Below are positions 1 to 21,279 of a stretch of DNA of 21,279 nt, one piece after another. The stretch is from NCBI GenBank assembly GCA_031416075.1, contig JANOSY010000006.1:1-21279 (forward strand), read 5' to 3'. Below the pieces are notes generated by a model. The model did no database searches. It had not been told where the DNA came from and saw only the letters and a program-made list of their open reading frames with translations. The position numbers and the translations under genes were made by a program. Every line of letters begins with the position of its first letter. Within the stretch, counting starts at the first letter, position 1. The DNA is from Candidatus Tenderia sp. Lineage in GTDB: Bacteria; Pseudomonadota; Gammaproteobacteria; Tenderiales; Tenderiaceae.

Positions 1-2
1 AC

Positions 3-1049: not shown

Positions 1050-1125
1050 AGCTAACAGTGTGGGTGAAGTGGCATCCATCGCGCGCAGCTGGAGCAGTGA
1101 TTAACGTTGCATACATGTTAAAGGA

Positions 1126-2053: not shown

Positions 2054-2070
2054 GGCGAAGGGGGACTCTC

Positions 2071-2808: not shown

Positions 2809-3353
2809 TTGAGCATAAAGTCCCGGACGTTAAGTGTGGGGCCATTTTTTGTGTCGGCCTGGAGTGTGATGGGCAAGAGATAGACTGAACCTCTGGGCGC
2901 TGCGATGGGTAGGAGTCTTAAGTCGCTGATGGCTTGGCGGAGTTCGAATTCCACTGGTCTCATGCCGGGACTGCTCCAGAGCAGGTGAGATTCTGTCACT
3001 GCCCCATTGCTATTGAATACCAATAACCAGTCGATGGTCCCCTCAAGACAGGGGTGGGTAGTTCGTGCGTGAGAGTAGATGGCGTCAGCCCTGCGTTGCA
3101 GTGCTGCCCTTACAACAGGGGTTTGACGTTGTACGGTTTTTCCCCGCCAGCGTTCAGATAAACGCAAGTAGGCCTCTTGGGCGCGACTATAACTGTAAGT
3201 CTCATCTTCTTTGATTGGGCATGTCACTGAGGTTGCTGTGGGTGAGCTGTTGTCAGACTCGCCGGTGATGGTTTGAAGCAGTGCACAGCCACTCAACAAT
3301 CCGCCGCTGAGAAGCAAGACTAAATATCTGTTAACTGATGATTTGATCTGCAT
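2805..3353 (-). CDS. Putative lipoprotein with a TonB-C/AgmX-PglI-like C-terminal domain
   Basis: ATG at 3353 gives a basic N-terminus, a hydrophobic stretch and a lipobox (LLSG-C). The C-terminus IYSHARTTHPCLEGTI..VFNSNGAVTES..LPITL fits a TonB-C-like pattern. It overlaps both neighbours. Confidence 0.6.
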   Translation of the reverse strand: MQIKSSVNRYLVLLLSGGLLSGCALLQTITGESDNSSPTATSVTCPIKEDETYSYSRAQEAYLRLSERWRGKTVQRQTPVVRAALQRRADAIYSHARTTHPCLEGTIDWLLVFNSNGAVTESHLLWSSPGMRPVEFELRQAISDLRLLPIAAPRGSVYLLPITLQADTKNGPTLNVRDFMLK

Positions 3354-4599: not shown

Positions 4600-4609
4600 T
4601 GGGTTTTAT

Positions 4610-4635
4610 CCCCTCACTTCTGCAGAGGTGAGGGG
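4610..4635. promoter_or_regulatory. GC-rich hairpin in the queF-kinase spacer that includes the kinase Shine-Dalgarno
   Basis: Minus strand reads CCCCTCACCTC-TGCA-GAAGTGAGGGG-ATAAAACCCA-ATG. Confidence 0.6.
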
Positions 4636-4643
4636 GTAGATTA

Positions 4644-5057
4644 TCAGGGCAGTGTGACAGGCACGGGCGGTACCCAACCCGGTTGACGATGTTCTGCCAC
4701 CACGGTGGTGTAGATGCCGCCACGGACGTTGAATTCGCCGGTCAGGCGCATGAAGCGTGGGTTGCAGGCGGCAACCAGGTCGCTGAGGATATCGTTGGTG
4801 ACCTTTTCGTGGAAGGCACCTTCTTCACGGAATGACCACATGTAGAGCTTGAGGGACTTGAGTTCCACACACTGCCGGTCGGCGATGTAGTCGATTTTGA
4901 AGGTGGCAAAATCGGGTTGGCCGGTTTTGGGGCAGAGGCAGGTGAACTCGGGCACGGTGATACGAATGGTGTAGTCGCGCTCCGGCATGGGGTTGTCGAA
5001 GGTCTCCAAGGTCTTACTCGGTGTCTTGCTGGGGGTTGTGTTTGGCTGTAATGACAT
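4644..5057 (-). CDS. queF: preQ1 synthase QueF (short, unimodular type)
   Basis: [32 protein letters not shown] and FNVRGGI signatures. Confidence 0.97.
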
Positions 5058-5121
5058 AATGTATAGGACTCAATAAGTTAAAAAATATAGCTCGTTGGAT
5101 GCCAGAGCTTGTTAACAGCGG

Positions 5122-5150
5122 TTTAGTGCGGCACTGCACTCTGGTATGAT
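5122..5150 (+). promoter_or_regulatory. Putative sigma70 promoter for smc (extended -10)
   Basis: TTTAGT-17 bp-TATGAT with TGn immediately before the -10; an imperfect inverted repeat AGTGCGG-CA-CTGCACT (5125-5140) overlaps the spacer. Confidence 0.45.
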
Positions 5151-5271
5151 CGGGCGTTATTTTAACGCGAAAATGGTTTTAAGGTACCGCAATAAGTTGT
5201 ATCAGCGCCATTGGGGGGAAAAGTGGGCTGGAATAGGGTTGTTGAGTAGCTTACATCAGGTTGGAGAGTGA

Positions 5272-8200
5272 ATGCGTCTTAAGACAATCAAGCTGGCAGG
5301 ATTCAAGTCTTTTGTTGATCCCACCTCTATTCCTATGCCCAGCAACATGATTGGAATCGTCGGCCCCAACGGCTGTGGCAAGTCCAATACCATCGATGCG
5401 GTGCGCTGGGTGATGGGCGAAAGCTCGGCTAAAAACCTGCGTGGTGACTCCATGGCCGATGTCATTTTTAACGGCTCCACCTCCCGTAAACCGGTGGGGC
5501 AGGCAACGGTTGAGCTGATCTTTGATAACAGCGATGGTGGTCTGGGTGGTGAGTATGCCCAGTACGCCGAGATATCGATCAAACGTCAAGTGACCCGTGA
5601 CGGCCAATCCAACTACTACCTCAACAATACCCGTTGCCGCCGCCGTGACATTACCGACATCTTCCTCGGTACCGGCCTGGGGCCGCGCAGTTACGCCATT
5701 ATTGAGCAGGGCACCATCTCACGTTTGATTGAGGCCAAACCCGAAGAGCTGCGGGTTTTTATTGAAGAGGCGGCCGGCATCTCCAAATATAAGGAGCGCC
5801 GCCGTGAGACCGAAAACCGCATTAAACATACCCGCGAGAACATCGAACGTATTAATGACGTGCGTGATGAGTTGGAAAAACGTATTGCCACCTTGCAGCG
5901 GCAGGCCAAAACAGCGGAGAAGTACAAACAGCTGAAGGATGAGGAGCGCAAGCTCAAGGCTGAGCTGTTGGCACTACGGTTTCACAGCCTCGATGCCACC
6001 GTGCAGGAGCGTGACAAGCAGATCAAGGGGCAGGAGACGGCTCTGGAGGGGCAGATTGCCGAGCTACGGAGTGTGGAGGCCACTATTGAGAGCCAACGCG
6101 AACAGCAGATTGAGGTCAACGAGAAGTTTAACGAGGTCCAGGGACGCTATTATGCCTTGGGGGCCGAGATTGCACGCCTTGAACAGACCATCTCCCACGT
6201 CAAGGAGTCACGTCAACAGCAGGAGCGCGAGTTGCGCGAGGTGGACAACGCCTGGCGTGAGGCGACCGAACATCTCACCAGCGACAGTGAGGCTATCGAA
6301 GAGTTAAAGATGGCGCTGGAGGGGCACGAGGAGCAGATGTTGCTGTCCCGTGAAAAAGAGGCTGAGTCGGGCGCGATGCTGACCCAGGCGGAAGAGGGCA
6401 TGCACCTCTGGCAACAGCAGTGGGATGAGTTTAACCAGACATCCGCCGCCCATATCCGCAGTGCCGAAGTTGAAAATGCCCGTATCCAGCATCTGGAACA
6501 GAGCCAGACTCAACTCAATCAGCGTATGCAGCGTATGGAAGATGAGTTGACAACCCTCTCACCCGGCGGTCTCGATGGTGAGATCGAGGCCTTTCAGCTT
6601 GAACGTGCCGAACTGGATGAGCAGCTGGAGCAGCTACGCCACGAGCTGGAACAGCAGGTCGAGCAGATTGGCCATGAACGACAGCTGGCGCAAAATCTGA
6701 GTAGTGAGCTGGATAGTGACCGCAGCCGTTTGCAGGCGATGCAGGGGCGCAACTCATCACTGGAGGCGTTGCAGCAGCAAGCGTTGGGCAAAGGCAATCA
6801 AGCCGTCAACCACTGGCTCAAGGGGTGCGGACTTGATAACGCCAGCCGCCTGGCGCAAAACCTAACGGTTGAAAAGGGGTGGGAAAAGGCGGTTGAGGTA
6901 GTCTTGGGGCTGCATCTTGAGTCGGTCTGTGTCAATGGCATAGAGGCGGTGGCCGCCGCACTGAAGGATTTAAAACAGGGCTCACTGGCACTTTTTGATG
7001 TTACAGCGGATGCTGGCACTGCTCTGCAACAAGGGCCGCTGACCGACTCACTGTTGAGCAAGGTCACCTCAAAATACTCCATGGCCTCACTCCTGAGTGG
7101 CATTTACGCCGTGAATTCCTTAGAGCAGGCGCTGACGCAACGCAATCAGCTGCAGGCCAATGAATCGATGGTGACCCGTGATGGGTTATGGTTAGGCCGT
7201 GACTGGCTGCGCGTAGTGCGTGGCAGCACGGAGAAGGCAGGGGTTTTACAGCGCGAACAGGAGTTAAAAACCCTGGCCGCCGAGATTGATGAGACACGTG
7301 GCCGTGTTGAAGAAGTTAGTGGCCAGCTACAGGAGAGCCGCAGCCGACAGCAGGAGTTGGAGCGTGGCCGTGACGAGTTACAACTGCAGGTGAACCAGAG
7401 CACTCAATTGCTGGCACGTATTGAGTCGCAACTGAGTGCCCGTAACGAACGTCTGCAGCAGTTTCAAAGCCGCAAACTTCGTCTCGAGGCGGATATCAAC
7501 GACCTGCGTCAGCAGCGCGACGGCAGCGACCAGACGGTTGTTGAGGCGCGGGCACGCCTGACTGAAGCGCTGGCGTTAACAGAAAATTTTGAAGAGCAGC
7601 GCCATGAGTTAACTCAGCGGCGCGAAACATTACGCCAGCAGCTGGATAATAGTCGCCAGCAGTCGCGCACTGATCGTGATCAGGCCCATGAGATTGCCCT
7701 GAAGTTGCAGTCGATTCGTGCCCAACTTGATGGCACCCAGCAGCGGCTTGAACGTATGCAGGGTCAACTGAGTACGTTGGAGCGTCGTCGTGAAACGTTA
7801 CAGGCGCAACAACAGGTGCAGGGTGATCCGGTGGCAGAGCTGGGGCTTCAACTTGAAGAGCAACTGGGTCTCCGACTCGGTGTTGAAGAGGCGTTGATGT
7901 TTGCCCGTCGGACACTGGAGGAGGTGGATCATGCCATGCGCCAATCAGCGGAACAGCGCCTTCATGTTGAACAGAAGTCACAACAGATGCGTAGCCAGCT
8001 GGAACAGCTGCGTATCGCCAGCCAGGAGATTCGTGTTCGCAGTCAGACGGTATATGAACAGTTCAGCGAGACCAGCTTTAATCTTGAAGAGGTCGTTGCC
8101 CAGTTGATCGACGGGGCGGATGAACATAGCTGGCAGAACAAGGTGAACGAGATCGGTCAGGGCATACAACGTCTTGGAGCGATCAATCTTGCGGCCATTG

Positions 8201-8787
8201 AAGAGTATGAAGAGCAGTCACAACGCAAGGCCTATCTGGATGCGCAGTGTGGTGATCTGAACGATGCGCTGAATACTTTGGAGACGGCTATCCGCAAGAT
8301 CGATAAAGAGACACGTACCCGCTTTAAAGATACCTTTGACAAAGTGGACAGCGGTGTCAAAGAGCTGTTTCCGCGGCTCTTTGGTGGTGGCCACGCCTAT
8401 CTGGAGCTAACGGGGGATGATCTGTTAGACACCGGTGTTACAATCATGGCCCGGCCACCGGGCAAACGGAACTCGAGCATTCACATGCTCTCGGGTGGGG
8501 AGAAGGCGTTAACCGCGGTCGCGCTGGTATTCTCAATCTTCCAGCTCAATCCAGCGCCGTTCTGTATGCTCGACGAAGTGGATGCGCCGCTGGACGAAGC
8601 CAACGTCGGTCGTTTCTGCCGCATGGTAAAAGAGATGTCTGAGAAGGTACAATTCATCTTTATTACCCATAACAAAACCACTATGGAGATGTCGGATCAT
8701 CTCACAGGCGTCACCATGCACGAACCCGGCGTATCACGTCTCGTGGCTGTGGACATCGAAGAAGCCATAAGTATGGTTGCAAGCTAA
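5272..8787 (+). CDS. smc: Chromosome segregation protein SMC
   Basis: Walker A GPNGCGKSN, long coiled coils around a hinge, signature LSGGEKAL, Walker B/D-loop LDEVDAPLD and FITHNK; 1171 aa. Confidence 0.99.
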   Translation: MRLKTIKLAGFKSFVDPTSIPMPSNMIGIVGPNGCGKSNTIDAVRWVMGESSAKNLRGDSMADVIFNGSTSRKPVGQATVELIFDNSDGGLGGEYAQYAEISIKRQVTRDGQSNYYLNNTRCRRRDITDIFLGTGLGPRSYAIIEQGTISRLIEAKPEELRVFIEEAAGISKYKERRRETENRIKHTRENIERINDVRDELEKRIATLQRQAKTAEKYKQLKDEERKLKAELLALRFHSLDATVQERDKQIKGQETALEGQIAELRSVEATIESQREQQIEVNEKFNEVQGRYYALGAEIARLEQTISHVKESRQQQERELREVDNAWREATEHLTSDSEAIEELKMALEGHEEQMLLSREKEAESGAMLTQAEEGMHLWQQQWDEFNQTSAAHIRSAEVENARIQHLEQSQTQLNQRMQRMEDELTTLSPGGLDGEIEAFQLERAELDEQLEQLRHELEQQVEQIGHERQLAQNLSSELDSDRSRLQAMQGRNSSLEALQQQALGKGNQAVNHWLKGCGLDNASRLAQNLTVEKGWEKAVEVVLGLHLESVCVNGIEAVAAALKDLKQGSLALFDVTADAGTALQQGPLTDSLLSKVTSKYSMASLLSGIYAVNSLEQALTQRNQLQANESMVTRDGLWLGRDWLRVVRGSTEKAGVLQREQELKTLAAEIDETRGRVEEVSGQLQESRSRQQELERGRDELQLQVNQSTQLLARIESQLSARNERLQQFQSRKLRLEADINDLRQQRDGSDQTVVEARARLTEALALTENFEEQRHELTQRRETLRQQLDNSRQQSRTDRDQAHEIALKLQSIRAQLDGTQQRLERMQGQLSTLERRRETLQAQQQVQGDPVAELGLQLEEQLGLRLGVEEALMFARRTLEEVDHAMRQSAEQRLHVEQKSQQMRSQLEQLRIASQEIRVRSQTVYEQFSETSFNLEEVVAQLIDGADEHSWQNKVNEIGQGIQRLGAINLAAIEEYEEQSQRKAYLDAQCGDLNDALNTLETAIRKIDKETRTRFKDTFDKVDSGVKELFPRLFGGGHAYLELTGDDLLDTGVTIMARPPGKRNSSIHMLSGGEKALTAVALVFSIFQLNPAPFCMLDEVDAPLDEANVGRFCRMVKEMSEKVQFIFITHNKTTMEMSDHLTGVTMHEPGVSRLVAVDIEEAISMVAS

Positions 8788-8802
8788 TTTTTGGAAGGAA
8801 AT

Positions 8803-9675
8803 ATGGATTCTCTACTGCTGGTATTAACGGTTATTGGTGTAGTTCTGATTCTGGCGGGTATCGCCAAGATGCGTAGTAATCGCCGTCACCATCGGGACGA
8901 AATTGATCACAGCATTCTTTTTGACAACCAACATAATAACGACGTGTTGGCCGATGATGATGTGGAGATCAAGCGGATACGTAAAGCAGAAAAAACGGCG
9001 GATATATCACCAATACACACTGATATTGACGTTTCGATGGCTGACGAAGATCTGCCACATATCAGTAGCGACAATGATATGAGGATTGATATCGATGCTA
9101 GTGAGCGCCCAGAGCCAATCTACGAAGAACGCCCCATTGCCAGAGATCGCGCCCGTACAATCCTGAATAAGCTGCGTATGGATAACAAGGGTGATGATCT
9201 GGATCAAGAGGTCGAGTCTGATAACACACTGGTTAAGCACTATCGCACTGGTGCACCGGATAAGGTGGTGGTGCTGAACATCATGGCACCCAAAGGTCGT
9301 TTTTTTGCCGGCCCCGTATTGGTAGATGCCATTGAATCGCTAGGCATGATCTATGGCGAGATGGAGATTTTTCATCTCTATTCTGACAATGCACCGCTGT
9401 TTAGTTTGGTCAATATGGTCAAGCCGGGTATTTTTGATATGACAACCATTGAGTCACTCAACACACCCGGCGTCAGCCTGTTTATTCAGCTGCCTAATAA
9501 ACAGGGCAATGGTCTGGAGGCATTTGACATCATGCTTGATGTTGCACAGCGTCTCAACCTTACCTTAAGTGGTTCACTCTGTGACGAGCGCCGTAACATT
9601 CTCACCCACTCAGCTATTGATTACATGCGCCAGCAGCTGGCCGAGTATGACTGCAAGTGGTTGGCAACGGCCTGA
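8803..9675 (+). CDS. zipA: Cell division protein ZipA
   Basis: N-terminal TM anchor, acidic linker, and C-terminal GMIYGEMEIFH..FSLVNMVKPGIFD..TPGVSLF..LCDERR domain; directly after smc; AGGAA before ATG 8803. Confidence 0.92.
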   Translation: MDSLLLVLTVIGVVLILAGIAKMRSNRRHHRDEIDHSILFDNQHNNDVLADDDVEIKRIRKAEKTADISPIHTDIDVSMADEDLPHISSDNDMRIDIDASERPEPIYEERPIARDRARTILNKLRMDNKGDDLDQEVESDNTLVKHYRTGAPDKVVVLNIMAPKGRFFAGPVLVDAIESLGMIYGEMEIFHLYSDNAPLFSLVNMVKPGIFDMTTIESLNTPGVSLFIQLPNKQGNGLEAFDIMLDVAQRLNLTLSGSLCDERRNILTHSAIDYMRQQLAEYDCKWLATA

Positions 9676-9697
9676 GCTAGCTGAGGTATATGGACCA

Positions 9698-11443
9698 ATG
9701 GTTGAGTTGGAGGCTACCTCGTTACAGTCGATGAAAAAAGAGGCCGAGGCGCTTTTGCTGGAACAGCGCCTGCCAGAAGCAAGGGCCGCTTTTTCGCAGC
9801 TTTGTTTACGCTCACCTGATGATTGCAATGCTTGGCTTAACCTGGGGGCAGTAGAGGGGATGCTTGGCTCGCTAACAGCAGCCAAACAGGCCTTCCAGCA
9901 AGCACTTGGATTACGCAATGATGAACCCAGGGTGTTTTTTAATCTGGCGCGTTTGTGTGAATTGCAGGAGCAGTTTGATGAGGCACTGCATTACTGGAGT
10001 GGCTATTTGCAGTTAATGCCGGATGACGCAGCTGGTTACGCACAAATAGCCCAGCTGCTGCATAAAGTGGGAAAGTTGCCAGAGGCGGCGCAGGCGATGC
10101 ATGAGGCCGTTCAGCGCAATCCTGATGAGGTTGAGTATTATAATAATCTCGGCGTTATGTTGGGGCGATTGGGGCGTTATGATGAGGCATTAACAAACTA
10201 TCAACACGTATTGCGCCTAAGGCCTGATGTGGATGGGGTGTATTGCAATATTGCAAATCTCTACCACAACATGGGTGATGGTGAAATGGCCAGGGCCAAT
10301 TTTGCCCGTGCCCTGGCGCTTAACCCAGACAATGCCTCCACACATATGAATCTCGGATTTCATTACGCCAGGAGCGGCCGTAATGATGAGGCGCTGAACA
10401 GTTTTAGAGAGGCGTTACGGATAGCGCCCGATAATGCGGCGGCGCACTTTAATATGGCGTTGCTGCTGCTGTTGCTGGGGCGGTTTCATGAGGGGTGGTT
10501 AGAGTATGAGTGGCGTTTTAAATGTAATGAGATAAGACGCCAGGATGTGCTTGCAAGGTATTACTCAAAGCCCCAATGGGATGGCGCATATCTTACGACA
10601 GAGGTCTTGCTTGTTTACGTTGAACAGGGTTTTGGTGATGCCTTGCAGTTTTGTCGTTACCTGCCCCTTGTTGCGCGGCGTGTTAAACATCTCATTGTTG
10701 AATGTCATGCTGAGTTGTTGACACTGTTGCGTGGTCAAGAGCAACTTGGTGGCATTGAGTTTGTGTCCCGCTCTACCGATGATCTGTTGCCAATGGTCGA
10801 TTACGATGTGCAGATTCCACTCTTGAGTCTGCCTCGTTTGTTTGAGATGGAGGTGGGGCCGGTATTTCAAGAGACAACCTATATTCAGTCCGATCCACAG
10901 CATATGGAACGTTGGCAGCGCCATTTTAATCATAATAAGTTGAAGGTTGGCTTGGTATGGGCAGGCAGTCCTGATCATCAGCGTGACCAGATGCGTTCGT
11001 TATCACTGAAGGCATTTAACCTGTTTGCCGGGATGAGTGGGGTCTGTTTTTACAGCCTGCAAAAAGGCCTCGCCGCATCTGAGGCAATTACACCGCCTGA
11101 GGGTATAGATCTGATTAATCTTGCGCCGGAGCTAAATGATTTTTCAGCAACTGCTGCAGTGATCGCCCATCTTGATCTGGTGATCAGCGTTGATACTGCT
11201 GTTGCTCACTTGGCTGGGGCGATGGGCAAACCAGTCTGGACCTTGATCTACTCACCCCCTGATTGGCGCTGGTTACTTGAATGCACAGAGAGCCCCTGGT
11301 ATCCAACGATGCGGCTCTTCAGGCAGGAGATGGGTGGTGACTGGATGGCAGTGATTGAGCGTGTCGCCATGGAGTTGCAAAAAATAGTGCTTAAACGTGG
11401 TGTGGCATCTGATGTTAAACGTCCAGACCTAGATCTGGTGTGA
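9698..11443 (+). CDS. TPR-repeat protein with a C-terminal GT-B (GT9-like) glycosyltransferase domain, paralog 1
   Basis: Multiple TPRs (AWLNLG, YYNNLG, HMNLG), then EQGFGDALQFCRY, VGLVWAG, VISVDTAVAHLAGAMGKP and WRW..SPWYPTMRLFRQ. GAGGT lies upstream of ATG 9698. Confidence 0.88.
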   Translation: MVELEATSLQSMKKEAEALLLEQRLPEARAAFSQLCLRSPDDCNAWLNLGAVEGMLGSLTAAKQAFQQALGLRNDEPRVFFNLARLCELQEQFDEALHYWSGYLQLMPDDAAGYAQIAQLLHKVGKLPEAAQAMHEAVQRNPDEVEYYNNLGVMLGRLGRYDEALTNYQHVLRLRPDVDGVYCNIANLYHNMGDGEMARANFARALALNPDNASTHMNLGFHYARSGRNDEALNSFREALRIAPDNAAAHFNMALLLLLLGRFHEGWLEYEWRFKCNEIRRQDVLARYYSKPQWDGAYLTTEVLLVYVEQGFGDALQFCRYLPLVARRVKHLIVECHAELLTLLRGQEQLGGIEFVSRSTDDLLPMVDYDVQIPLLSLPRLFEMEVGPVFQETTYIQSDPQHMERWQRHFNHNKLKVGLVWAGSPDHQRDQMRSLSLKAFNLFAGMSGVCFYSLQKGLAASEAITPPEGIDLINLAPELNDFSATAAVIAHLDLVISVDTAVAHLAGAMGKPVWTLIYSPPDWRWLLECTESPWYPTMRLFRQEMGGDWMAVIERVAMELQKIVLKRGVASDVKRPDLDLV

Positions 11444-13146
11444 AGAGAGTGGCTACATCAGAGCGGCTTTTGCTGGATGCCAAAAAACAGGAAGCGGCGA
11501 CGCTGCTGCAAGCCAAGCGGTTTTCTGATGCACTTGCTATACTGACATGGGTTTGCCAGCACGATCCTGATGATTATGAGTCCTGGTTTAATCTTGGGGC
11601 TCTTAATGGCAAACTCGGGATGTTTGCAGCTGCAGAGGCCACATTTTTAAAAGCGCTTGCGTTACGTAGCAGTGATCCACAAATTTATATTAATCTGGCA
11701 CGCCTTTGTGATCTTCAAGGTCGTTTTGATGATGAGCTGGTCTATTGTCGGCGCTTTTTACAGCTGGTGCCAAATGATGGTGCGGCCTATTCACAGATAG
11801 GCAAAGTGCTGCATCGCTTGGGGCGCTTGCCAGAGGCTGAGCAGGCGTTACGTGAAGCCTGGCGCTACGCCCCTAATAATGCGGCATATGTGAATAATCT
11901 TGGCATTGTCCAGGATGATCTTGGTCGTTACGATGATGCATTAGAGTGTTATAGAAGTGCACTGCACTTGAACCCTCAAATGGATAGTGCCTATTGCAAT
12001 CTGGGAAAGCTATTCCAAAAAAATGGGGAAAGTGAATCTTCTGAAGCCGCATATTTAGCAGCGCTGAAAATTAATCCACAGAACTCAGATGTCCAACAAA
12101 ATCTTGGGATCCTGCTGCTGGGGCTTGGGCGTAATGATGAGGCTATGCACTGTTTTAACGAGAGACTTAGGGCACTCCCGGAGTGTGCAGAGGCCCATTG
12201 GAACCGTGCGCTGTTGTTGCTGGCGGCGGGTAACTTTAGTGATGGCTGGGAGGAGTATGAGTGGCGTTTTAAATGTCATGAGTTGATGTCTCAGCCACTT
12301 GAGGCGCGATACTCTTCAAAAACATTGTGGGATGGATCAGTACTGACTGATCAAACATTGTTGATCTATGTTGAGCAGGGGTTTGGCGATACGCTACAGT
12401 TTTGTCGTTATCTGCCACTGGTAATGCAGCAGGTCAAACATCTGATCTTTGAATGTCAACCTGAATTGTTTGCGTTGTTGTCGAATGTGTTTAAGGATAT
12501 CAAATGTATTCAGCGACCAGCGGAGAGTGCGCTGCCTGATATTGATTACGACCTTCAGGCTCCACTTTTGACACTCCCGCGTCTGTTGAATACAGTTATG
12601 GAATCGATTCCCGTTGCCATTCCGTATATACACGCTGATCCACGATTGGTGGAGCGCTGGTCTCAACGTATTGGCAAAAACAGTTTTAATGTTGGAGTTG
12701 TTTGGGCAGGAAATCAAAATTACAAGGGCGATAAAGAGCGCTCTCTTTCATTGGCGGCAATAGAGCGGTTGGGCGAGGTTAGTCGCCACATCTGTTTTTA
12801 TAGCCTGCAAAAAGAGGGGGGCACAGAGGCTATTTATTCAATAAACCCCATGCGGTTGGTCGATCTGGCGTCAGAGCTGGATAGCTTTGCTACGACTGCG
12901 GCTGTGATCGAGAATCTGGATTTGGTGATTACGGTTGATACGGCAGTGGCTCATTTGGCCGGTGCGATGGGAAAACCGGTTTGGACCTTGATATATTCGC
13001 CTCCTGATTGGCGTTGGCTACTGGATCGCAATGATTCTCCTTGGTACCCAACAATGCGCCTTTTCAGACAATCAAAGGCGGGGGAGTGGGATGAGGTGAT
13101 CGACCGTGTGGCCAGTGCACTCGCTATGGATGTGTCACGGCGGTGA
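11440..13146 (+). CDS. TPR-repeat protein with a C-terminal GT-B (GT9-like) glycosyltransferase domain, paralog 2
   Basis: Same architecture and motifs as paralog 1 (EQGFGDTLQFCRY, VITVDTAVAHLAGAMGKP, SPWYPTMRLFRQ); GTGA start/stop overlap with it. Confidence 0.88.
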   Translation: MKRVATSERLLLDAKKQEAATLLQAKRFSDALAILTWVCQHDPDDYESWFNLGALNGKLGMFAAAEATFLKALALRSSDPQIYINLARLCDLQGRFDDELVYCRRFLQLVPNDGAAYSQIGKVLHRLGRLPEAEQALREAWRYAPNNAAYVNNLGIVQDDLGRYDDALECYRSALHLNPQMDSAYCNLGKLFQKNGESESSEAAYLAALKINPQNSDVQQNLGILLLGLGRNDEAMHCFNERLRALPECAEAHWNRALLLLAAGNFSDGWEEYEWRFKCHELMSQPLEARYSSKTLWDGSVLTDQTLLIYVEQGFGDTLQFCRYLPLVMQQVKHLIFECQPELFALLSNVFKDIKCIQRPAESALPDIDYDLQAPLLTLPRLLNTVMESIPVAIPYIHADPRLVERWSQRIGKNSFNVGVVWAGNQNYKGDKERSLSLAAIERLGEVSRHICFYSLQKEGGTEAIYSINPMRLVDLASELDSFATTAAVIENLDLVITVDTAVAHLAGAMGKPVWTLIYSPPDWRWLLDRNDSPWYPTMRLFRQSKAGEWDEVIDRVASALAMDVSRR

Positions 13147-13155
13147 TGTTGCCAC

Positions 13156-13190
13156 TGGCGATTTTGTCCGGAATTCCTGTATACTGCGCC
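13156..13190 (+). promoter_or_regulatory. Putative ffs promoter
   Basis: TATACT (13180-13185) followed by a GC-rich discriminator GCGCC typical of stable-RNA promoters; the -35 is weak. Confidence 0.45.
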
Positions 13191-13228
13191 ACTCTTGATA
13201 CTTGCACCGCCAGTATCAGTCGTTTTAT

Positions 13229-13343
13229 GGTGGCTCGCGTCGGTCACCCCGCAACGATATGCTGTGAACCCCGCCAGGCCCGGAAGGGAGCAACGGTAAT
13301 AGCAGATTCGTGTGCCGGGGCCCGGCGGGCGCGGGCTGCCACC
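13229..13343 (+). ncRNA. ffs: Signal recognition particle 4.5S RNA
   Basis: Conserved domain IV core CCAGGCCCGGAAGGGAGCAACGG; termini GGTGGC.../...GCCACC pair into one long hairpin; lies upstream of dnaX. Confidence 0.95.
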
Positions 13344-13478
13344 TATCTGTAGCTCCGCATGTAAAAACTTACCAATTTCTATTTTTGTGTCGTGTAGTTA
13401 GCGCAGTTTTGCGTTAAAATCTTGGCCTATGTCATTATTTATCCATACATTCCCGGTTCTGCTTGTAAAGGTGAACGG

Positions 13479-15098
13479 ATGAGTTATCAGGTTCTGGCGC
13501 GTAAATGGCGGCCACGTAACTTCGGTACGATGGTGGGCCAGGAGCATGTTCTGCGGGCGCTGATCAACGCACTTGATAATGATCGTCTGCACCATGCCTA
13601 TCTGTTTACCGGCACCCGTGGTGTTGGTAAAACTACTGTGGCGCGTATCTTTGCCAAATCACTCAATTGTGAACAGGGCATAACGTCGGTGCCGTGTGGT
13701 ACTTGCAGTGCTTGCCGTGAAATTGATGAAGGGCGTTTTGTTGATCTGCTTGAAGTGGATGCTGCTTCGCGCACGAAGGTTGAGGATACCCGCGAGTTAC
13801 TGGAGAATGTGCAATATTCACCTACCCGAGGCCGTTTTAAGGTCTACCTGATAGACGAAGTGCACATGCTCTCCAGCCACAGCTTCAATGCCTTGCTCAA
13901 GACACTGGAAGAGCCACCACCACACGTTAAATTTCTGTTGGCCACTACCGATCCGCAAAAACTCCCGGTTACCATTCTATCCCGCTGCCTGCAATTCAGT
14001 CTGAAGCGGTTATCAAAGGAACTGATTGTTGGCCATCTCATTAATGTGATGGAAAAAGAGCAGATTCCTGTTGAACCAGCGGCGCTTTCGCTGATTGCTG
14101 AGGGGGCCGATGGCAGCATGCGCGATGCACTGAGCCTGCTTGATCAAGCTATTGCTTATGGCGGTGGCAAACTCACTATCGCTGAAGTGGCGACTATGTT
14201 GGGAACCATTGACAAAAGTTATCTCTTCAGGATTTTGCAGGCCCTAGCTGATAATAATGGCCAATCTGTTCTCGATACCGTTCATGGATTGGCTCAACAA
14301 GGAGTCGATTTTACGGCTGTATTGGCGGGGCTGATATCACAGCTACATCAGCTGGCCTTAATTCAAATCTCTCCACAAGCACTGGAGCAGTCACCAGACT
14401 ATGCGGTAATGACGACATTAGCTGCGGCTATTACCCCGGAAGATGTTCAGCTCTATTATCAGATCGCTCTTCTGGGGCGGCGTGATCTCCCTTACGCACC
14501 CGATATGCGTAGTGGTTTCGAAATGGTTTTGTTACGAATGTTGGCATTTCGCCCAGTAGCAGTGGGCGAGGTGGTATCGCATCCTCAGGGTGTGACAGCA
14601 CGATCCACAGCGAGCGCGCCTCCCCAGGCGTCCGCATCTGCCAGACAGTCAACGGTTATTGATGCTGTTTTAACTACGCAGCAGGATGATGTTGTAAAAA
14701 ACGAGACTACACCACTGAGCAGCGCTGCTCCTTGGCATGAGATTGTATCTAAACTTGACTTGCGCGGCATGGCACTACAACTGGCGGTTAATTCAGTAAT
14801 GACTGGGCGTGATGGCAATGTTATTCATCTGATGCTTTCATCACAACACGCCACTCTACGCAGCCCGGCTATGGAGCTGCGCTTACATGACGCGTTACAG
14901 AGCTTTTTCAATGAACCCGTCAAACTCAAATTTACGATTGGTGAGGTGCAGGAGAGTCCGGCCCATTTGAATCAACGTGCTAGCGATGAACGACAGCAAG
15001 CAGCTGTTACTGCTATGCATAATGATCCAAATGTTCAACGTATTCAGGAAACATTTAACGCAGAAGTGATTACTGAGTCTATTCGCCCCATTGGGTGA
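13479..15098 (+). CDS. dnaX: DNA polymerase III subunit gamma/tau
   Basis: [21 protein letters not shown], Zn-binding Cys cluster, DEVHML, ILSRC and the C-terminal tau domain ([16 protein letters not shown]). Confidence 0.99.
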
Positions 15099-15136
15099 TG
15101 CAGGCATCGATCTACTTTATTAAGGAGGAAAGTATC

Positions 15137-15463
15137 ATGATGAAAGGTGGTTTGGGCGGCCTGATGAAGCAGGCTCAAAAGATGCAGGAAAACGTGCAGA
15201 AGGCCCAGGAAGAGCTGGGTAATATGGAAGTCACAGGACAATCGGGCGGTGGTATGGTCTCGGTGGTGATGACGGGGCGTCATGATCTGCGTCGTGTGAC
15301 TATCGATCCAGCTCTGATGCAAGAAGATAAAGAGATGCTCGAGGATCTGCTGGCAGCAGCCGTGAACGATGCTGTGCGTACTATCGAGCGTGTAAGCCAG
15401 GAAAAGATGTCCGGTATGACTGCTGGCATGGGCCTTCCACCTGGAATGAAACTGCCATTTTGA
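15137..15463 (+). CDS. ybaB: YbaB/EbfC nucleoid-associated protein
   Basis: [18 protein letters not shown] and [15 protein letters not shown]; AAGGAGG RBS; dnaX-ybaB-recR synteny. Confidence 0.96.
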
Positions 15464-15531
15464 TGTTGGCCTGTTATCCTAAAGAAATAGTGCCTGATTA
15501 TTTTGCGGCTAAATTTAGTGTTTGATTCTCG

Positions 15532-16128
15532 ATGAAACAGACTTCATTAATTGGCCAATTGATCGACGCGTTGCGTTGTTTGCCAGGTGTTGGGCCAAAA
15601 TCTGCACAGCGTATGGCCTTCCACCTGCTTGAGCGTGATAGAAATGGTGCGCGCCGTTTGGCCCATCTGTTAGTGGAGTCCGCTGATAAGATTGGCCATT
15701 GTTCCCAGTGCCGCACCCTCACTGAACATGAAATCTGCGCTATTTGCGCCAATACCGGGCGCGACCGTTCGTTATTGTGTGTGGTGGAGATGCCTACAGA
15801 TGTGGCGGCGATTGAGCACTCAAATGTCTATCGTGGCCTCTATTTTGTTCTGTTAGGACATCTTTCGCCACTGGATGGTATAGGCCCTGACCAGATTGGG
15901 TTGGACATACTCTCTGCACGTCTGGCACAGCAAGAGGTGAGGGAGGTTATCCTTGCCACTAATTCGACAGTGGAAGGTGAGGCAACTGCCCATTACATTG
16001 CAGAGTTGGCAAAGGGATATAAAATTAATATCAGTCGTATAGCACGTGGTGTACCAATGGGAGGGGAGCTGGAGTATGTGGATGGTGGCACGTTGTCGCA
16101 TGCCATGGCCAGTCGGCAGCTGATTTAA
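15532..16128 (+). CDS. recR: Recombination mediator RecR
   Basis: [12 protein letters not shown]4 Zn finger, TOPRIM EVILAT..EGEATA and GGELEYVD. Confidence 0.98.
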
Positions 16129-16197
16129 TTTTTAAACTATCTTAATGATCTATTTTGCTTCAGATTGCTGTTACCAGATCAATAAAAAGGATAACGT

Positions 16198-16590
16198 GTG
16201 TCAGAAGCACTGCTGTTTGCAATTGCAATTTACCTCTTAATGGTACTGGCATTTTTTCTCGCTAAGTGGCGCTTTTTCCATGTGCCCGTCATGGTCCTTT
16301 CGATCCTGTTTGATCTGTTGATACCAGTCTATTTAATTCTTACTAAGGATTGGTATAAACGATTGATAGAGCAGGAAGAGATATTCTCTTTTATGATCTG
16401 GATGCATTTTATTCTGGTACTTACCCTTTATGCCCTTTATGGACTTCAGATAATGACCATTAAAAAGATGGTTAATGGGGATGAGGTTGCACGTAAAGAA
16501 CATCGCACACAAGGTGTGGGAATTTTAATTGCACGCGGTCTGGTGATACTGTCAGCAGCAATGTTGATAGACCCCACTGGTGCAGAGTAA
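16198..16590 (+). CDS. Small 4-TM membrane protein with three histidines (DUF420/cytochrome b-like, uncertain)
   Basis: Four hydrophobic segments with His in FFHVP, WMHF and KEHR; AAAAGGA upstream of the GTG. Confidence 0.6.
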   Translation: MSEALLFAIAIYLLMVLAFFLAKWRFFHVPVMVLSILFDLLIPVYLILTKDWYKRLIEQEEIFSFMIWMHFILVLTLYALYGLQIMTIKKMVNGDEVARKEHRTQGVGILIARGLVILSAAMLIDPTGAE

Positions 16591-16631
16591 CGCCATATTC
16601 GTTTCATTCAAACACTGTTTGGGGAAGTATT

Positions 16632-17108
16632 ATGCAATTAACGTTGTACAGTGATTACTCACTACGTGTATTGATCTATCTTGGCGCACATCCAGGACAT
16701 CGTGCAACTATATCCGAAATAGCCCAGAGTTACGGTATATCACGCAACCATCTGGTAAAAGTTGTGCATAATCTGGCCAATCTTGGCTTTATTGATACGG
16801 TTCGTGGTCGAAGTGGTGGCATGATATTGGCACTGGTACCAGAGCTAATTAACATTGGTAACGTTGTTCGTAAGACTGAGCCAGATTTTGATATAGTGGA
16901 GTGTTTTAATGAGGCAACCAATACCTGTCCAATCTCGCCCTCTTGTGCGTTGATTAAAGTTTTAAAAATAGCTCGTAATAGGTTTATCGAAACACTTGAT
17001 GAGTATACCTTAGCAGATGTGGTAGCTAATGCGTCACAGCTGGCTGTTTATTTGAGAATTGATACATTAGCTCTGCCAAAAATTCAGCGTGGACAAAAGG
17101 GAGGCTAA
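16632..17108 (+). CDS. nsrR: Rrf2-family Fe-S regulator, NsrR-like
   Basis: MQLTLYSDYSLRVLIYL, ISRNHLVKVV, RGRSGG wing and three Cys in VECF..TCPISPSC. Confidence 0.8.
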   Translation: MQLTLYSDYSLRVLIYLGAHPGHRATISEIAQSYGISRNHLVKVVHNLANLGFIDTVRGRSGGMILALVPELINIGNVVRKTEPDFDIVECFNEATNTCPISPSCALIKVLKIARNRFIETLDEYTLADVVANASQLAVYLRIDTLALPKIQRGQKGG

Positions 17109-17116
17109 GCCAGCTC

Positions 17117-18112
17117 TCACTTGTGTGAATGTGATATAGGCTCAATAAACGAGTTTAGAATTTCTAAATAGTTGTTATAGCGGCGTTGGCTGATCTGTTT
17201 TTCAGCCACTGCGGTTTTAATGGCACACAAAGGTTCGTGTATATGCACACAGTTATTGAACTTGCATTGTCCCAGATAGTGACGAAACTCTATAAAACAG
17301 TCAGCGAGCACATCTAACCCTATTCTGCTCAATCCAAATTCCCTTACACCCGGCGAATCAATCAGATTGGCACCACACGGCAAATGGTAGAGCACGGCGG
17401 TTGTGGTGGTATGTTTACCTTTTCCTGAACTGGCTGAAACCTCGCCGATACGGATCGCTTTATCAGGCAAGAGTGCACTGATGAGTGATGACTTACCCAC
17501 ACCTGACTCACCCACAAAAACATTTGTATGGCTGGCCAGTTGGGTGTGTAACTCATCAAGGCCATTTTTCTGTGTCGTGCTGGTGTAACACACTTGGTAA
17601 CCGATATCGTGGTAGTTTTTCAGATCCTGTGTTAACTGTTGTTGCTCCACTTTATTCAGCAGGTCAATCTTGTTTACTACCAGAACGGGGGTAATCTTCA
17701 GGCTCTCTGCTGCAATGATGTAACGGTCTATCAGGTTGGCATGAAACCGGTACCCCTCATCATCAAGGGCCTTGACTGTGGTAACGATAATGAGCTGGTC
17801 TATATTGGCCGCAATGGCTTTTTCACGGCCAATATCATCCGGGCGAGCGAGCAAGGTGTCGCGCTGCAACAATTCGACCACAATGCCTTGGTTATCATGA
17901 CTGGGTTCCCAGAGCACGCGATCACCACAGACAATAGCACCATGTTTGCGTCGTGAAGTGCAGCGATGGCTAATACCATCGCTATCTTCGATATCCATTT
18001 TCGCCCCGTAACTAGCGACAACCAGACCAGTACGGTAATCGCTGTTTATGGTGGAATTTTTAGTTTTTGAGGATGTTTGTGGACGTTGTGTAGGTGGACG
18101 TTTGATCGACAT
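17117..18112 (-). CDS. rsgA: Small ribosomal subunit biogenesis GTPase RsgA
   Basis: Circularly permuted GTPase motifs NKID, GESGVGKSS, GKHTTT and DSPGVREF; Zn motif CKFNNCVH..EPLC. Confidence 0.97.
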   Translation of the reverse strand: MSIKRPPTQRPQTSSKTKNSTINSDYRTGLVVASYGAKMDIEDSDGISHRCTSRRKHGAIVCGDRVLWEPSHDNQGIVVELLQRDTLLARPDDIGREKAIAANIDQLIIVTTVKALDDEGYRFHANLIDRYIIAAESLKITPVLVVNKIDLLNKVEQQQLTQDLKNYHDIGYQVCYTSTTQKNGLDELHTQLASHTNVFVGESGVGKSSLISALLPDKAIRIGEVSASSGKGKHTTTTAVLYHLPCGANLIDSPGVREFGLSRIGLDVLADCFIEFRHYLGQCKFNNCVHIHEPLCAIKTAVAEKQISQRRYNNYLEILNSFIEPISHSHK

Positions 18113-18118
18113 TGTCTA

Positions 18119-18403
18119 TTACTTGGTTGGGTATTTGTAAAAAGTGCTATTCAGGTATTGAACAACCTGATTGATCTGCGGCTCTGACCAGTGTTTGTTA
18201 TTGGCACTCTCACAAAACTCAACACGTGCTTTCAGCTCAGGTAGACTCTGTATAATACTGTTCTTGCGGACATATATAGCATCGTCGTGGCACTGCTGAC
18301 ACTGTCCGTCGACAAGTTTTTTGCCACTAGCGACATCAGAGGCATAAACACCAGGAGTCATTAATAGAGTGACGACCGTAGCAACCATAAGCACTTGTTT
18401 CAT
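18119..18403 (-). CDS. Small periplasmic monoheme c-type cytochrome (green heme protein-like)
   Basis: Signal peptide ending VYA, heme motif CQQCH, distal VEFC..W and YLNSTFYKY; no Met in the mature chain. Confidence 0.8.
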   Translation of the reverse strand: MKQVLMVATVVTLLMTPGVYASDVASGKKLVDGQCQQCHDDAIYVRKNSIIQSLPELKARVEFCESANNKHWSEPQINQVVQYLNSTFYKYPTK

Positions 18404-18526
18404 GACAATTCCTCATATGGGTGGAAAGTCCCTCATTCTAGCTGATTACATCCAAAAGTGTTTCACTTATAGGTTGTATCATTTGTAAAATGGCAATACC
18501 AAAAACTTACACATAAAAGGGCTATC

Positions 18527-19069
18527 ATGCTGCAAAACCCCAATAACCTAGTCTGGATCGATCTAGAGATGACGGGACTTGATCCTGACACCGATCTGAT
18601 AATTGAGATGGCAACTATTATCACTGATGCCAATCTTAACACCATTGCTGAAGGGCCAGTTTTTGCCATCCATCAAAGCGATACAATATTGGCGACAATG
18701 GATGAGTGGAATACCCGTCAACATGGAGGATCAGGGTTAACGGCGCGGGTAAAAGCCAGTGCCATTGATACTCGTGAAGCAGAGCGACAGACGATTGAGT
18801 TTTTGAGTCAGTATTTACCAGCTAAAACATCGCCCATATGTGGTAACAGTATCTGCCAGGACCGTCGATTTTTATACCGTCATATGCCGGAATTAGAGCA
18901 ATTTTTTCATTACCGCAATTTGGATGTCAGCACAGTCAAGGAGCTGGTAAAACGTTGGGCACCAGAGTTGGTCGATGGTTTTGCGAAAAAGGGAAGTCAT
19001 CTGGCCCTTGATGATATTCGTGACTCCATTCGTGAACTGCAATATTACCGGGAACATTTTATCAAATAG
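18527..19069 (+). CDS. orn: Oligoribonuclease
   Basis: [39 protein letters not shown] and [11 protein letters not shown]; divergent from rsgA as in many gammaproteobacteria. Confidence 0.98.
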
Positions 19070-19107
19070 TTTAGCGTACTGTTACAGCCTTTAAACGAAA
19101 CTATCGC

Positions 19108-19135
19108 CCCCAGCGGATATTTCCTCCTGGGGTTT
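19108..19135 (+). terminator. Possible orn terminator
   Basis: CCCCAG..GGA-TATT-TCC..CTGGGG stem followed by only TTT. Confidence 0.3.
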
Positions 19136-19210
19136 GGTAGTCAATAAGTAAGAGGGGGGTGAAAAAATGGAGTGTATAAAGCCTTGTACAACAATAAGTT
19201 AACCATTCAT

Positions 19211-19351
19211 TTGTCGTATAATGTCCCCATTATGTTCACGCCGCCCCAGAAGGATAATGGCGAAGCCCTGTCGGGGTGGCGCTCGATTCCCTTGGGGTGA
19301 ATATCTCTATCACCCCAAGGGGATTTATACATAGTGGCTATTATGCGGGCT
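19211..19351. other. Pair of inverted dif-like XerC/XerD sites forming a CTXphi-type att junction
   Basis: Site 1 (+): TTGTCGTATAA-TGTCCCCA-TTATGTTCACG. Site 2 (-): AGCCCGCATAA-TAGCCA-CTATGTATAAAT. Compare E. coli dif GGTGCGCATAA-TGTATA-TTATGTTAAAT. Two hairpins lie between them. Confidence 0.8.
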
Positions 19352-19448
19352 TGACGGGGTACGAAATCACAGCCTTAAACATGGTGTTTTTGACCTGGCT
19401 TTCTATCTTTCAGTTTTATCTTGGTTAACTGCAGGGCGATGGTCGAGG

Positions 19449-19498
19449 AGGTCCGGGGGCCTGTTACACACGGACTTTACCCCGGGATCCCGGGGTAA
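19449..19498 (+). repeat. Candidate rolling-circle origin hairpin plus an adjacent perfect 22-bp palindrome
   Basis: GTCCG-N15-CGGAC hairpin (19451-19475) and TTACCCCGGGATCCCGGGGTAA (19477-19498) just upstream of the rep gene. Confidence 0.6.
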
Positions 19499-19542
19499 CT
19501 AATTACTTAGAATCTTCCATCGCTCTCCATGGCGGTTAGCGC

Positions 19543-20636
19543 ATGTTCTATGACTGGCTGACTATTTACCAAGACCATGAGGGCGATCTGTCAATGATCG
19601 GTGACCGCGCCACTATTACCATCGATACTGTAACCGGTACTCACCTCGGTACGTCTCAGCCAATTGTTCAGCATGAAGGCTCTTACTGTACTTCGATTCA
19701 GATTCGCGTCAGTGCTAATCGTGTCACCGTGAAGGGTAATCCCTCCCGTATTAATCGTCTTGATAATTTGTTTGGTCTTACCTCCCTTGATGAATGTGTT
19801 GCTGTTTATAACCGTGTTTTGATCTCTCTCGGTCTGCCTCCCTTTACAAAATGCACTCGTGTTTTTCATCGTGCCAATGAAGCCGATCGCGTCGAGGTGA
19901 CTTATGACGGGGCCATGATTCAAGAGCTGCATATTACCTCTAATCGATCGGCGGGTGAGGGGTGTGCTGATGATTACATTCGCGGGCTTTCAACTCTGCG
20001 TTATCGCCACATCGAACCGCGTCTACATACCAACGGAAAAACAGCGGATTGGTTGAGTGTTCGCAACCATGAAGGTCGTGCTTCCTCGTTGATGTATCCC
20101 ACGGTGTATAACAAGGCGTTTGATATGGCGTTGCATCTGTTGCCCAAAATTTCGAAAAAATACGGTCCTGCTTCGGTTGAGGATGACTATGTGCGTGATC
20201 TGATTGAACATAAATTGAAGTCTAAATTTTTAGCACGTAATAATTTCAGGTTTTATGGATTATTTGACGAAGCGGGCCTGAAACCATTTCACGATGATTT
20301 TTTGAATATTGATGAAAATTGCAGGTGACAGCCATGACATTGGAGAGCATTTCAGAACGTCTATTAAGATTGGGAATTTGTGATAGCACCAAGGCGGCTA
20401 ACTCAACGGCCATGTATGCCATGCTTTGGATGAGTGGCCAGAGCTTTGATTTAAAAAAATCACAAGTCAAAATCCATCGCGCCCGCCTGCGTCGTATCGG
20501 CATAGATATTGCCGACAAGTGCAACGTCTCTCGTCACTCTCCTGTTTATGTACGCAAGGCTATTGAAGTAGAAATCAAGCCGTTAGATCGTCCGTACTGG
20601 TATCGGTCAGCTGTGCCGCTAAGGCTGGTGGCATGA
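19543..20636 (+). pseudogene. Phage/plasmid replication initiator, gene II/X family, frameshifted
   Basis: MFYDWL..HEGS..GNPSR..RLDNLFG..LGLPPFT..VYNKA, and C-terminal IHRARLRRIGIDI..PYWY. The frames join at 20314-20321, where GAAAATTG would read EKL with one more A. Confidence 0.85.
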
Positions 20637-20824
20637 CTGGCGTAATAGATATGAGTAGTGGGGCGGTGGTTGATCGTTTTTACGCGGTCTGCATGGAGAC
20701 AGGCAGAGACCCAAAAGAATTTTATGGTGCTTACGGCGGAAGAGAAGAATTTTGTGCCTCCGTGCGTAGCTTTTCAAGAGATGGCCCAATGATGTGGCCC
20801 ATTAAACATGTGATTAAATCATGA
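20633..20824 (+). CDS. Small hypothetical phage protein
   Basis: 63 aa with ATGA start/stop overlaps at both ends (with rep and with gene V), suggesting translational coupling. Confidence 0.55.
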   Translation: MTGVIDMSSGAVVDRFYAVCMETGRDPKEFYGAYGGREEFCASVRSFSRDGPMMWPIKHVIKS

Positions 20825-20969
20825 TCAAAATTAATGTTGAGTCTACAGAAACACGTCAACGTATGAGCAAAGCGAATAAGCCATATTATAAATAGGCTGG
20901 ATGGGCGTTTTTAGTTGATCGTGATGGCGTACAAGAACCGCATCCAACCAAAAATATTCAGATGAGGCC
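20821..20969 (+). pseudogene. Filamentous phage gene V-like ssDNA-binding protein with a premature stop and IS truncation
   Basis: MIKINVESTETRQRMSKANKPYYK*AGWAFLVDRDGVQEPHPTK. TAG (20893-20895) sits where G5P-like proteins usually have Gln after KPY. It is not in the supplied ORF track. Confidence 0.75.
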
Positions 20970-21279
20970 CTCAGTGATCCCCTCATTTTTCAATATACCG
21001 CTGATTGCCGTAATTTTTTTCAGCCCATTGATTTCATGCGCGAACATGATCATTCTTGCGCTTCATTTATCGAGAAGGCAAATCATGAAGAAGCGGAGTG
21101 TTGGGCGAATAGAAGATGTTCATTCCTTTCTTGATGATGTTCTTCAAGGCGATCTGCATGCCAAACGTGTGGCGTCATTGGCAAATGCCACGCTGGGGGT
21201 ATTAAACAGCACCTCATTAGCTGTACAGGCCATAGGCCTCGGCCTGGCTCATGCGCAGGGGTTGGTGACCAAGCATGCC
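20970..21279 (+). mobile_element. IS4-family (IS10-group) insertion sequence, left part
   Basis: Terminus CTCAGTGATCCCCTCATTT resembles the IS10 end CTGATGAATCCCCT; followed by a transposase ORF. Confidence 0.8.
21085..21279 (+). CDS. IS4-family transposase (5' part, runs off the window)
   Basis: MKKRSVGRIEDVHSFLDDVLQGDLHAKRVASLANATLGVLNSTSLAVQAIGLGLAHAQGLVTKHA, a typical IS10-group N-terminus; open to the window end. Confidence 0.85.
   Translation, partial: MKKRSVGRIEDVHSFLDDVLQGDLHAKRVASLANATLGVLNSTSLAVQAIGLGLAHAQGLVTKHA

Follow-up and report, generated by a model that had tools for sequence, protein, structure and literature searches.

A decayed filamentous prophage in an uncultured gammaproteobacterium carries a probable CTX-type attachment structure beside a gene II/X-type replication gene

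Results

Chromosomal genes and the start of the phage DNA

The stretch of DNA analyzed here (the window, 21,279 bases) is a complete contig and contains the chromosomal genes cysZ, an FGGY kinase gene, queF, smc, zipA, dnaX, ybaB, recR, an Rrf2 regulator gene, rsgA and orn, the last of which occupies 18527-19069 with its stop codon at 19069. The closest named relatives of the RsgA protein belong to uncultured gammaproteobacteria (Ca. Tenderia, 56%; Kaarinaea, 49%). Based on the gene content and these RsgA relatives, the host is a gammaproteobacterium with SMC and ZipA and not a Vibrio, which agrees with an earlier note on this DNA, where an SMC-encoding host unlike Vibrio had been proposed. 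Between zipA and dnaX, there is also a pair of adjacent and overlapping paralogues (9569-11443 and 11440-13146) with many TPR repeats and a weak C-terminal match to glycosyltransferase family 9.

Inovirus DNA begins at about 19211. The segment between the orn stop codon and this point (19073-19210) is non-phage DNA, which is 92% identical to the corresponding part of the best-matching related locus (L001) and differs from the phage DNA at the right end of L001. Right after orn (19073-19135), an inverted repeat CCCCAG...CTGGGG followed by TTTGG is kept in L001 and looks terminator-like by eye; the terminator scan of 18900-19700 called no terminator, this inverted repeat included.

Replication gene and decay of the prophage

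The first phage gene, located at 19543-20636 on the + strand, is a broken rolling-circle replication gene (rep) of the gene II/X type. When it was compared by tblastn with two full-length relatives of 376 aa (78% and 69% identical), the reading frame was found to change at 20316 inside a run of A, from frame 1 to another frame, although a one-base slip in such a run could equally be an assembly error. An in-frame gap of 11 residues relative to the full-length relatives lies at 20208-20230. The N-terminal ORF (261 aa) corresponds to positions 1-265 of the 382 positions of phrog_702, and the next ORF, in the other frame, corresponds to positions 267-367 of the same family and to Pfam G2P_X_C (PF05155). 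The best named relative of the rep is gene II of If1, to which the 261-aa N-terminal part is 46% identical over 99% of its length. If1 is not known to integrate. Among 553 candidates, 339 proteins were homologous to the rep at E <= 1e-10, and for the best 120 of these 339, most are about 375 aa long, many lie on contigs of 5-6 kb, and all but one contain PF05144 and/or PF05155. Using these profile matches, the If1 similarity and the domains of the homologues, the assignment to a gene II/X replicon rather than an RstA replicon, as claimed previously, is supported. RstA belongs to a different Pfam family. In L001, the rep is interrupted by a 348-nt insert with stop codons (1606-1953), exactly where the window rep is without the 11 residues.

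Upstream of rep by 45 nt, there is a perfect 22-nt palindrome, TTACCCCGGGATCCCGGGGTAA (19477-19498), which is kept in L001 (528-586) at 91.5% and has weaker matches in L021 and L018. This palindrome is a candidate plus-strand origin or operator. Between site 2 (described below) and the palindrome, L001 also has five tandem 13-nt units (ACCAGGTGCAGGA; 463-527), which are iteron-like and absent from the window.

Downstream of rep, a 63-aa ORF (20633-20824, +) stands in the place of a small phage gene and showed no family match in profile searches. It is followed by the remnant of a gene for a gene V-type ssDNA-binding protein (20821-20951, +), which is 91% identical to the first 44 residues encoded by L001 2546-2842 (a PF02303 match). 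An in-frame TAG (20893-20895) stands in the remnant at a position that encodes Q in the relative, and the gene is cut after residue 44 by the insertion of an IS4-family element, since homology to L001 ends at 20951. Only the left part of this element (20952-21279, +) lies in the window, and the N-terminus of its transposase (21085-21279, with the frame still open where the contig ends) shares 59-64% identity by tblastn with transposases annotated as IS4 or ISAs18-like. The order of rep and the gene V remnant is typical of Inoviridae of the gene II/X type; the coat, DUF2523 and Zot-type assembly genes were seen in the relative L001 only. No integrase was found in the prophage part on the contig (19211-20951) or among the 8 scanned ORFs of the complete L001 prophage. 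The prophage is thus decayed in three places, with a frameshifted rep, a stop codon in gene V and an inserted IS4 element, and judged from these lesions, it is a non-functional relic.

Two inverted dif-like sites and their single-stranded fold

Two dif-like sites lie 192 nt upstream of the If1-type rep. Site 1 (19211-19240, +) consists of a putative XerC-binding arm TTGTCGTATAA (19211-19221), which was matched by the scanner and through which the L001 homology runs, a central region TGTCCCCA of 8 nt (19222-19229) and a putative XerD-binding arm TTATGTTCACG (19230-19240) that matches the canonical arm at 8 of 11 positions. Site 2 (19324-19351, -) is inverted, has a 6-nt spacer (AGCCCGCATAA / TAGCCA / CTATGTATAAA) and forms the 3' half of the stem described below. 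The earlier note had reported two such inverted sites about 80 bp apart with arms that cross-pair on the + strand, and we found them 83 nt apart with this pairing. All of the strings quoted there are also present, including CGTATAA (19215-19221) and TTATGCG (19341-19347), the inner arms CCATTATGT (19227-19235) and ACATAGTGG (19329-19337), the arms of a first hairpin, CGCCGCCCC (19239-19247) and GGGGTGGCG (19273-19281), and the 12-bp arms of a second hairpin, CCCTTGGGGTGA (19289-19300) and TCACCCCAAGGG (19310-19321).

When 19205-19355 was folded as ssDNA on both strands, the + strand gave the stable fork that had been predicted. Its outer stem of 8 bp (19215-19222/19340-19347) is followed by an asymmetric bubble of GTCC opposite CT and, inside the bubble, by a 9-bp stem (19227-19235/19329-19337) which encloses two hairpins; within the central region of site 1, T19222 is paired, GTCC is bulged and CCA is paired. 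Hairpin 1 (19239-19281) has a G+C-rich stem of 9 bp with one G.T pair and an open loop, and hairpin 2 (19286-19324) has a stem of 15 bp, in which 12 perfect pairs are extended by three more including one T.G, and a loop of 9 nt. The + strand reached -30.4 kcal/mol (z = -3.99), and none of 200 shuffled sequences folded as well, while the - strand reached -26.4 kcal/mol (z = -2.60) with 1 of 200 shuffled sequences as good, and its fold does not contain the long-range stem. The stems contain four imperfect pairs: each outer stem has one, as do hairpin 1 and the extension of hairpin 2. All four read T.G or G.T on the + strand and would be A.C mismatches on the - strand, so the previous proposal that the rep-sense strand folds better through its G-T pairs was borne out. 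Because no Rfam family was matched in 18900-19700, no known structured RNA accounts for the fold. The sequence GGATAAT is located at 19252-19258, at the 5' side of the open loop of hairpin 1.

The motif matches themselves are not rare. Using a lax scan for dif (spacers of 5-13, score of at least 14 of 22), 6 matches were found in the window, whereas 200 random sequences from a first-order Markov model averaged 7.6, with a convergent pair in 23 of the 200. When spacers were restricted to 6-8, only sites 1 and 2 scored in the whole 21 kb. As the lax scan counts are at chance level, motif counting was rejected as a test of significance. The significance comes from the cross-pairing fold, the position beside an inovirus rep and the recurrence in relatives; the motif matches alone are insufficient.

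Recurrence of the layout in related loci

For comparison, relatives were collected by one scan of genome contigs with the rep alignment, which gave 47 loci with L001 as the best match (90% identical), and the dif scanner was applied to all of them. A convergent pair, consisting of a + strand site and an inverted site 70-170 nt further on, was found upstream of rep in 22 of the 47 loci, at about 0.5-1.7 kb from the gene. The other 25 are mostly short contigs or have one site or none at the scanner threshold. Since L005 and L046 share chromosomes with L006 and L045, 20 loci were analyzed as non-redundant. Among the 20 loci, the spacer of the + site is 8-13 nt long, with 8 nt in L014, L017, L025 and L045, as in the window, and 9-13 nt in 15 of the 20; that of the inverted site is 5-7 nt in 18, and 11 nt in L020 and L023 by the register used.

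At least 17 long-range pairs can form on the + strand in 19 of the 21 att regions including the window (the exceptions are L025 with 9 and L032 with 10). By folding energy, the + strand is favored in 16 att regions and the - strand, slightly, in 4, with one tie. A long stem is also possible on the - strand in every relative (20 of 21), and the window is alone in not having it. Folding energy alone therefore does not choose the strand, because the - strands of the relatives also form the long stem and 4 of 21 are more stable. A clearer asymmetry was found when the paired arms were compared: the differences produce G.T pairs 27 times on the + strand and 3 times on the - strand, next to 23 transversions and 283 identical positions, although this 27-to-3 ratio counts related sequences and one recurrent T/C at the first position of the XerD arm supplies many of the 27. 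The double hairpin on the + strand, a feature of the CTX type, is thus present in silico (window z = -3.99; G.T bias of 27 to 3).

The inner motifs of XerC and XerD are kept in the outer arms of all 21 att regions. The outer stem could be aligned for 10 of the 21 site pairs, in which 16 outer pairs are kept and two of these are changed on both sides (CG 5, GC 4 and AU 1; UA 7, GC 2 and UG 1). The inner hairpins were too divergent to be aligned across relatives, and only the outer stem was aligned. Other single-strand functions probably reside in the enclosed hairpins. The motif GGA[T/C/A]AAT occurs, on the 5' side of a hairpin loop, on the + strand of 12 of the 21 att regions (the window, L001, L014, L017, L020, L023, L024, L032, L033, L040, L041 and L045) and on the - strand of none, with the motif defined post hoc, after it had been noticed. 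This loop may be a single-strand priming or promoter-like signal.

Tandem phage copies 5.8-7.6 kb apart were observed in L017 (16.8 kb, in a record labelled plasmid), L005, L009, L040 and L045. L045 has three att regions, the last two of which are just 2.1 kb apart, and this close spacing suggests a satellite or deleted copy within the array.

Left junction, crossover point and regenerated dif

The window and L001 are 92% identical over 19073-19224 (L001 200-352), an interval that takes in the XerC arm and the first three bases of the central region. The homology breaks at 19224, 3 nt beyond the border between the XerC arm and the central region, and the sequences cannot be aligned again until 19441. 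In L001, site 1 lies at 339-372, site 2 at 430-457 and a dif at 7175-7202, beyond which host genes encode EarP, an amino-acid kinase and a CitMHS transporter. The DNA preceding this right-end dif is unrelated to window 19073-19210, and therefore the latter segment is not the phage's own; its interpretation as phage DNA or a tandem remnant was ruled out on the same ground. On the evidence of these alignments, 19073-19210 is most likely host DNA that once flanked the chromosomal dif on its XerC side. We also considered the different left flank of L001 as evidence against a host origin, which is accounted for by a 74-nt repeat: L001 126-199 is 100% identical to L001 1880-1953, where the insert in the L001 rep has its final 74 nt. 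The homology with the window begins immediately after the first copy and the L001 rep resumes immediately after the second, and the duplicate suggests a small mobile repeat.

The crossover point can be located in the Marinobacterium array (L005/L006). Its leftmost junction reads host DNA, ACTTCGTATAA and phage central region; the internal tandem junction reads phage DNA, GCTTCGCATAA and then phage central region; and the right end reads phage DNA, GCTTCGCATAA and then TGTATA-TTATGTTAAAT. These junctions thus confine the exchange to the interval from position 7 of the XerC arm to the central region, and as far as sequences can place it, this is also where XerC cuts according to the published CTX model. 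Together, the homology break at 19224, the non-phage DNA to its left and the Marinobacterium junctions agree with the earlier description of this locus as the left junction of a CTX-type Xer-exploiting element.

A far-end dif with a 6-nt spacer and 9-11 of 11 matches in the XerD arm was found in 16 of the 47 loci, 6-10 kb rightward; in L029, it lies at 0.3 kb, and the + site scanned there follows rep. Five of the 16 (L021, L027, L029, L038 and L042) are outside the 22 loci with a convergent pair. The window contig ends in the IS inside the prophage, and the right end and the host dif lie beyond the contig. GC skew is +0.107 over window 1-19210 and -0.124 on the right flank of L001, and in 8 of the 11 loci with both flanks, the skew switches from + to - over the prophage (the exceptions are L006, L014 and L043). 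This pattern fits integration at the terminus dif in the observed orientation and is no proof for the window genome. KOPS polarity in the window (1 vs 0) was uninformative.

Discussion

We consider it highly probable (about 85%) that a filamentous prophage entered by the CTX route and that the region from 19211 onward is both its attachment apparatus and its left junction, on the XerC side. Our data show the fold, its asymmetry between the strands, a layout shared across the family and, in relatives, the position of the crossover; for binding and cleavage by the Xer proteins, the choice of the packaged strand and the replicative resolution, the following scheme relies on analogy with the CTX literature. 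On the rep-sense + single strand, which would be the packaged one, site 1 and the inverted site 2 would pair into a stem that mimics dif, composed of a XerC-arm duplex (19215-19222/19340-19347), a XerD-arm duplex (19227-19235/19329-19337), a partly unpaired central region of 8 nt opposite 6 nt between them, and two capping hairpins. Host XerC and XerD would bind this folded stem, and XerC would cut both the site 1 strand and the top strand of the chromosomal dif after ...TATAA, so that one pair of strands is swapped. TGT, the first central bases, would supply the pairing for strand exchange, and the pseudo-Holliday junction would be resolved by replication. The left half of the product would then consist of the host XerC arm, the phage central region and XerD arm, 83 nt, an intact site 2, rep and the other phage genes, and in the right half, the phage XerC arm would be joined to the host central region and XerD arm, by which dif is regenerated. 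The double-stranded prophage would retain two sites, each unfit for a double-stranded reaction. Under this model, the window appears to contain the first half of the integration product, the XerC arm of site 1 would be derived from the host with the joining point of XerC cleavage after 19221, and the locus would be the dif of the host.

Other explanations need to be weighed against this reading, and most of the evidence bears on whether site 2 matters. If the double-stranded replicative form had recombined with dif via site 1 alone, as in VGJ-type phages, site 2 would be irrelevant or would serve another purpose. The direct orientation of site 1 and the right-end dif of the relatives is that of attL and attR in either model. 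Since the site 1 spacer is 8 nt and not 12, spacer length alone would also permit a double-stranded reaction at site 1 in the window, as in L014, L017, L025 and L045, and spacers of 8 bp are tolerated at some plasmid Xer sites such as cer. However, site 1 spacers are 9-13 nt in 15 of the 20 analyzed relatives, site 2 is conserved in position and inverted orientation with arms that co-vary with those of site 1, and a double-stranded reaction leaves the 27-to-3 G.T bias unexplained. According to the available text of PMC4246890, VGJ phage has a single 29-bp site. We therefore regard a VGJ-type origin as improbable.

Hairpins beside rep could also serve replication or packaging only, as a complementary-strand origin and/or a packaging signal, with the dif-like outer arms being incidental. 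Ff phages keep such hairpins in their intergenic region, the att region is the sole sizeable non-coding stretch beside rep, the GGA[T/C/A]AAT loop is found on the + strand in 12 of 21 cases and on the - strand in 0 of 21, and the motif matches alone are at the chance level of the lax scan. This explanation is nevertheless very improbable, because the XerC and XerD inner motifs are kept in 21 of 21 outer arms while the inner hairpins diverge past alignment, and the ends of the prophages coincide with the outer arms and a canonical dif. The two roles are in fact compatible, as the inner hairpins may serve replication or packaging inside the att stem. Least probable of all, in our estimation, is a cer- or psi-like multimer-resolution site that keeps the replicative form monomeric and has no role in integration. 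Plasmids use Xer sites in this way (PMC3442271, in the text available), and L017 is labelled a plasmid with two copies 7.6 kb apart; yet the relatives lie in chromosomes, flanked by host DNA at either end and with a dif regenerated, and an inverted partner site would be needless for resolution.

Returning to the CTX route, the resemblance to the cholera phage covers several features. As far as given in the available part of PMC4246890, CTX attP has a central region of 12 bp in attP1 and 5-7 bp in attP2, with 90 bp between the sites, and by the accessible text of PMC3442271, it folds into a 'double hairpin' on (+) ssDNA. In the window, the two XerC/XerD site pairs are likewise inverted, differ in the length of their central regions (8 and 6 nt) and lie at a similar distance (83 nt compared with about 90 bp); they fold into a double hairpin on the + strand, and the att region is upstream of rep at the left end of the prophage (in CTX, upstream of the regulator and rep). 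Integrase genes are missing from the window part and L001, and the relatives have a regenerated dif at the right end and tandem arrays. By its sequence architecture, the element can be classified as a CTX-type IMEX. In contrast with CTX, the rep is of the gene II/X type (PF05144 and PF05155) and not RstA, the long spacer is 8 nt (8-13 nt in relatives) rather than 12 bp, the host is an uncultured SMC-bearing gammaproteobacterium, and the copy is decayed with no toxin cargo visible. Because the rep is of the gene II/X kind, the element stands outside the CTX phage lineage, and If1, an Inoviridae member with a gene II/X replicon, is its best named relative by rep (46% identity).

Integration of the CTX type outside Vibrio is not new, since it has already been proposed for Ypf of Yersinia pestis and CUS-1 of E. 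coli K1. These two are listed with RS1 as related CTX-type members in the available text of PMC4246890, and for Ypf phage, the accessible part of PMC4266046 describes a potential inverted XerC/XerD site pair and an intact dif at the 3' end. By these descriptions, they resemble the window element as filamentous prophages at dif in hosts other than Vibrio and differ from it in host lineage; no Yersinia record was present among the 22 phage records that match the window rep. The VGJ type, which includes VGJ and the Cf and Lf phages of Xanthomonas, is similarly filamentous and uses host XerCD at dif with XerC catalysis, as far as PMC4246890 is available, and it is described there with a single double-stranded 29-bp site; its integration is reversible. 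In place of such a single double-stranded dif-like att site, the window has two inverted sites that cross-pair. IMEXs of Vibrio or of enterobacteria are the subject of the accessible parts of PMC12715192, PMC7307601 and a 2026 bioRxiv preprint, and a word search of the open-access literature found no description of such a hairpin for Pseudomonas or for inoviruses with an If1-type rep. What is new here is the host lineage and a different replicon for the known CTX-style integration, and not a new mechanism.

In conclusion, the integration trick of the cholera phage can be recognized from sequence in an uncultured gammaproteobacterium of the SMC type, in combination with a different replication module. 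In the genome of the window itself, the element is a dead relic without visible cargo, and the most useful by-product of the analysis is the set of related loci, which shows that the layout is widespread. The 20 non-redundant loci form a test set outside Vibrio that includes several from culturable Pseudomonas species, and with it, the way in which host specificity is set by spacer length and by the first central bases can be studied. They also offer a practical route to place dif, and hence the replication terminus, on fragmentary metagenome assemblies. We tentatively propose, as a possibility that is at present rather doubtful, that CTX-style single-strand Xer integration is the normal route in a large clade of If1-type gene II/X inoviruses, which would span Pseudomonas, Stutzerimonas, Marinobacterium, Cellvibrio and uncultured gammaproteobacteria, and that the fork hairpin with GGATAAT doubles as a priming signal for the complementary strand. 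If such a clade-wide route is true, the mechanism would be general and independent of the replicon, and not a speciality of Vibrio and two enterobacterial phages. If the priming role of GGATAAT is also true, attachment and second-strand synthesis would compete for one folded element.
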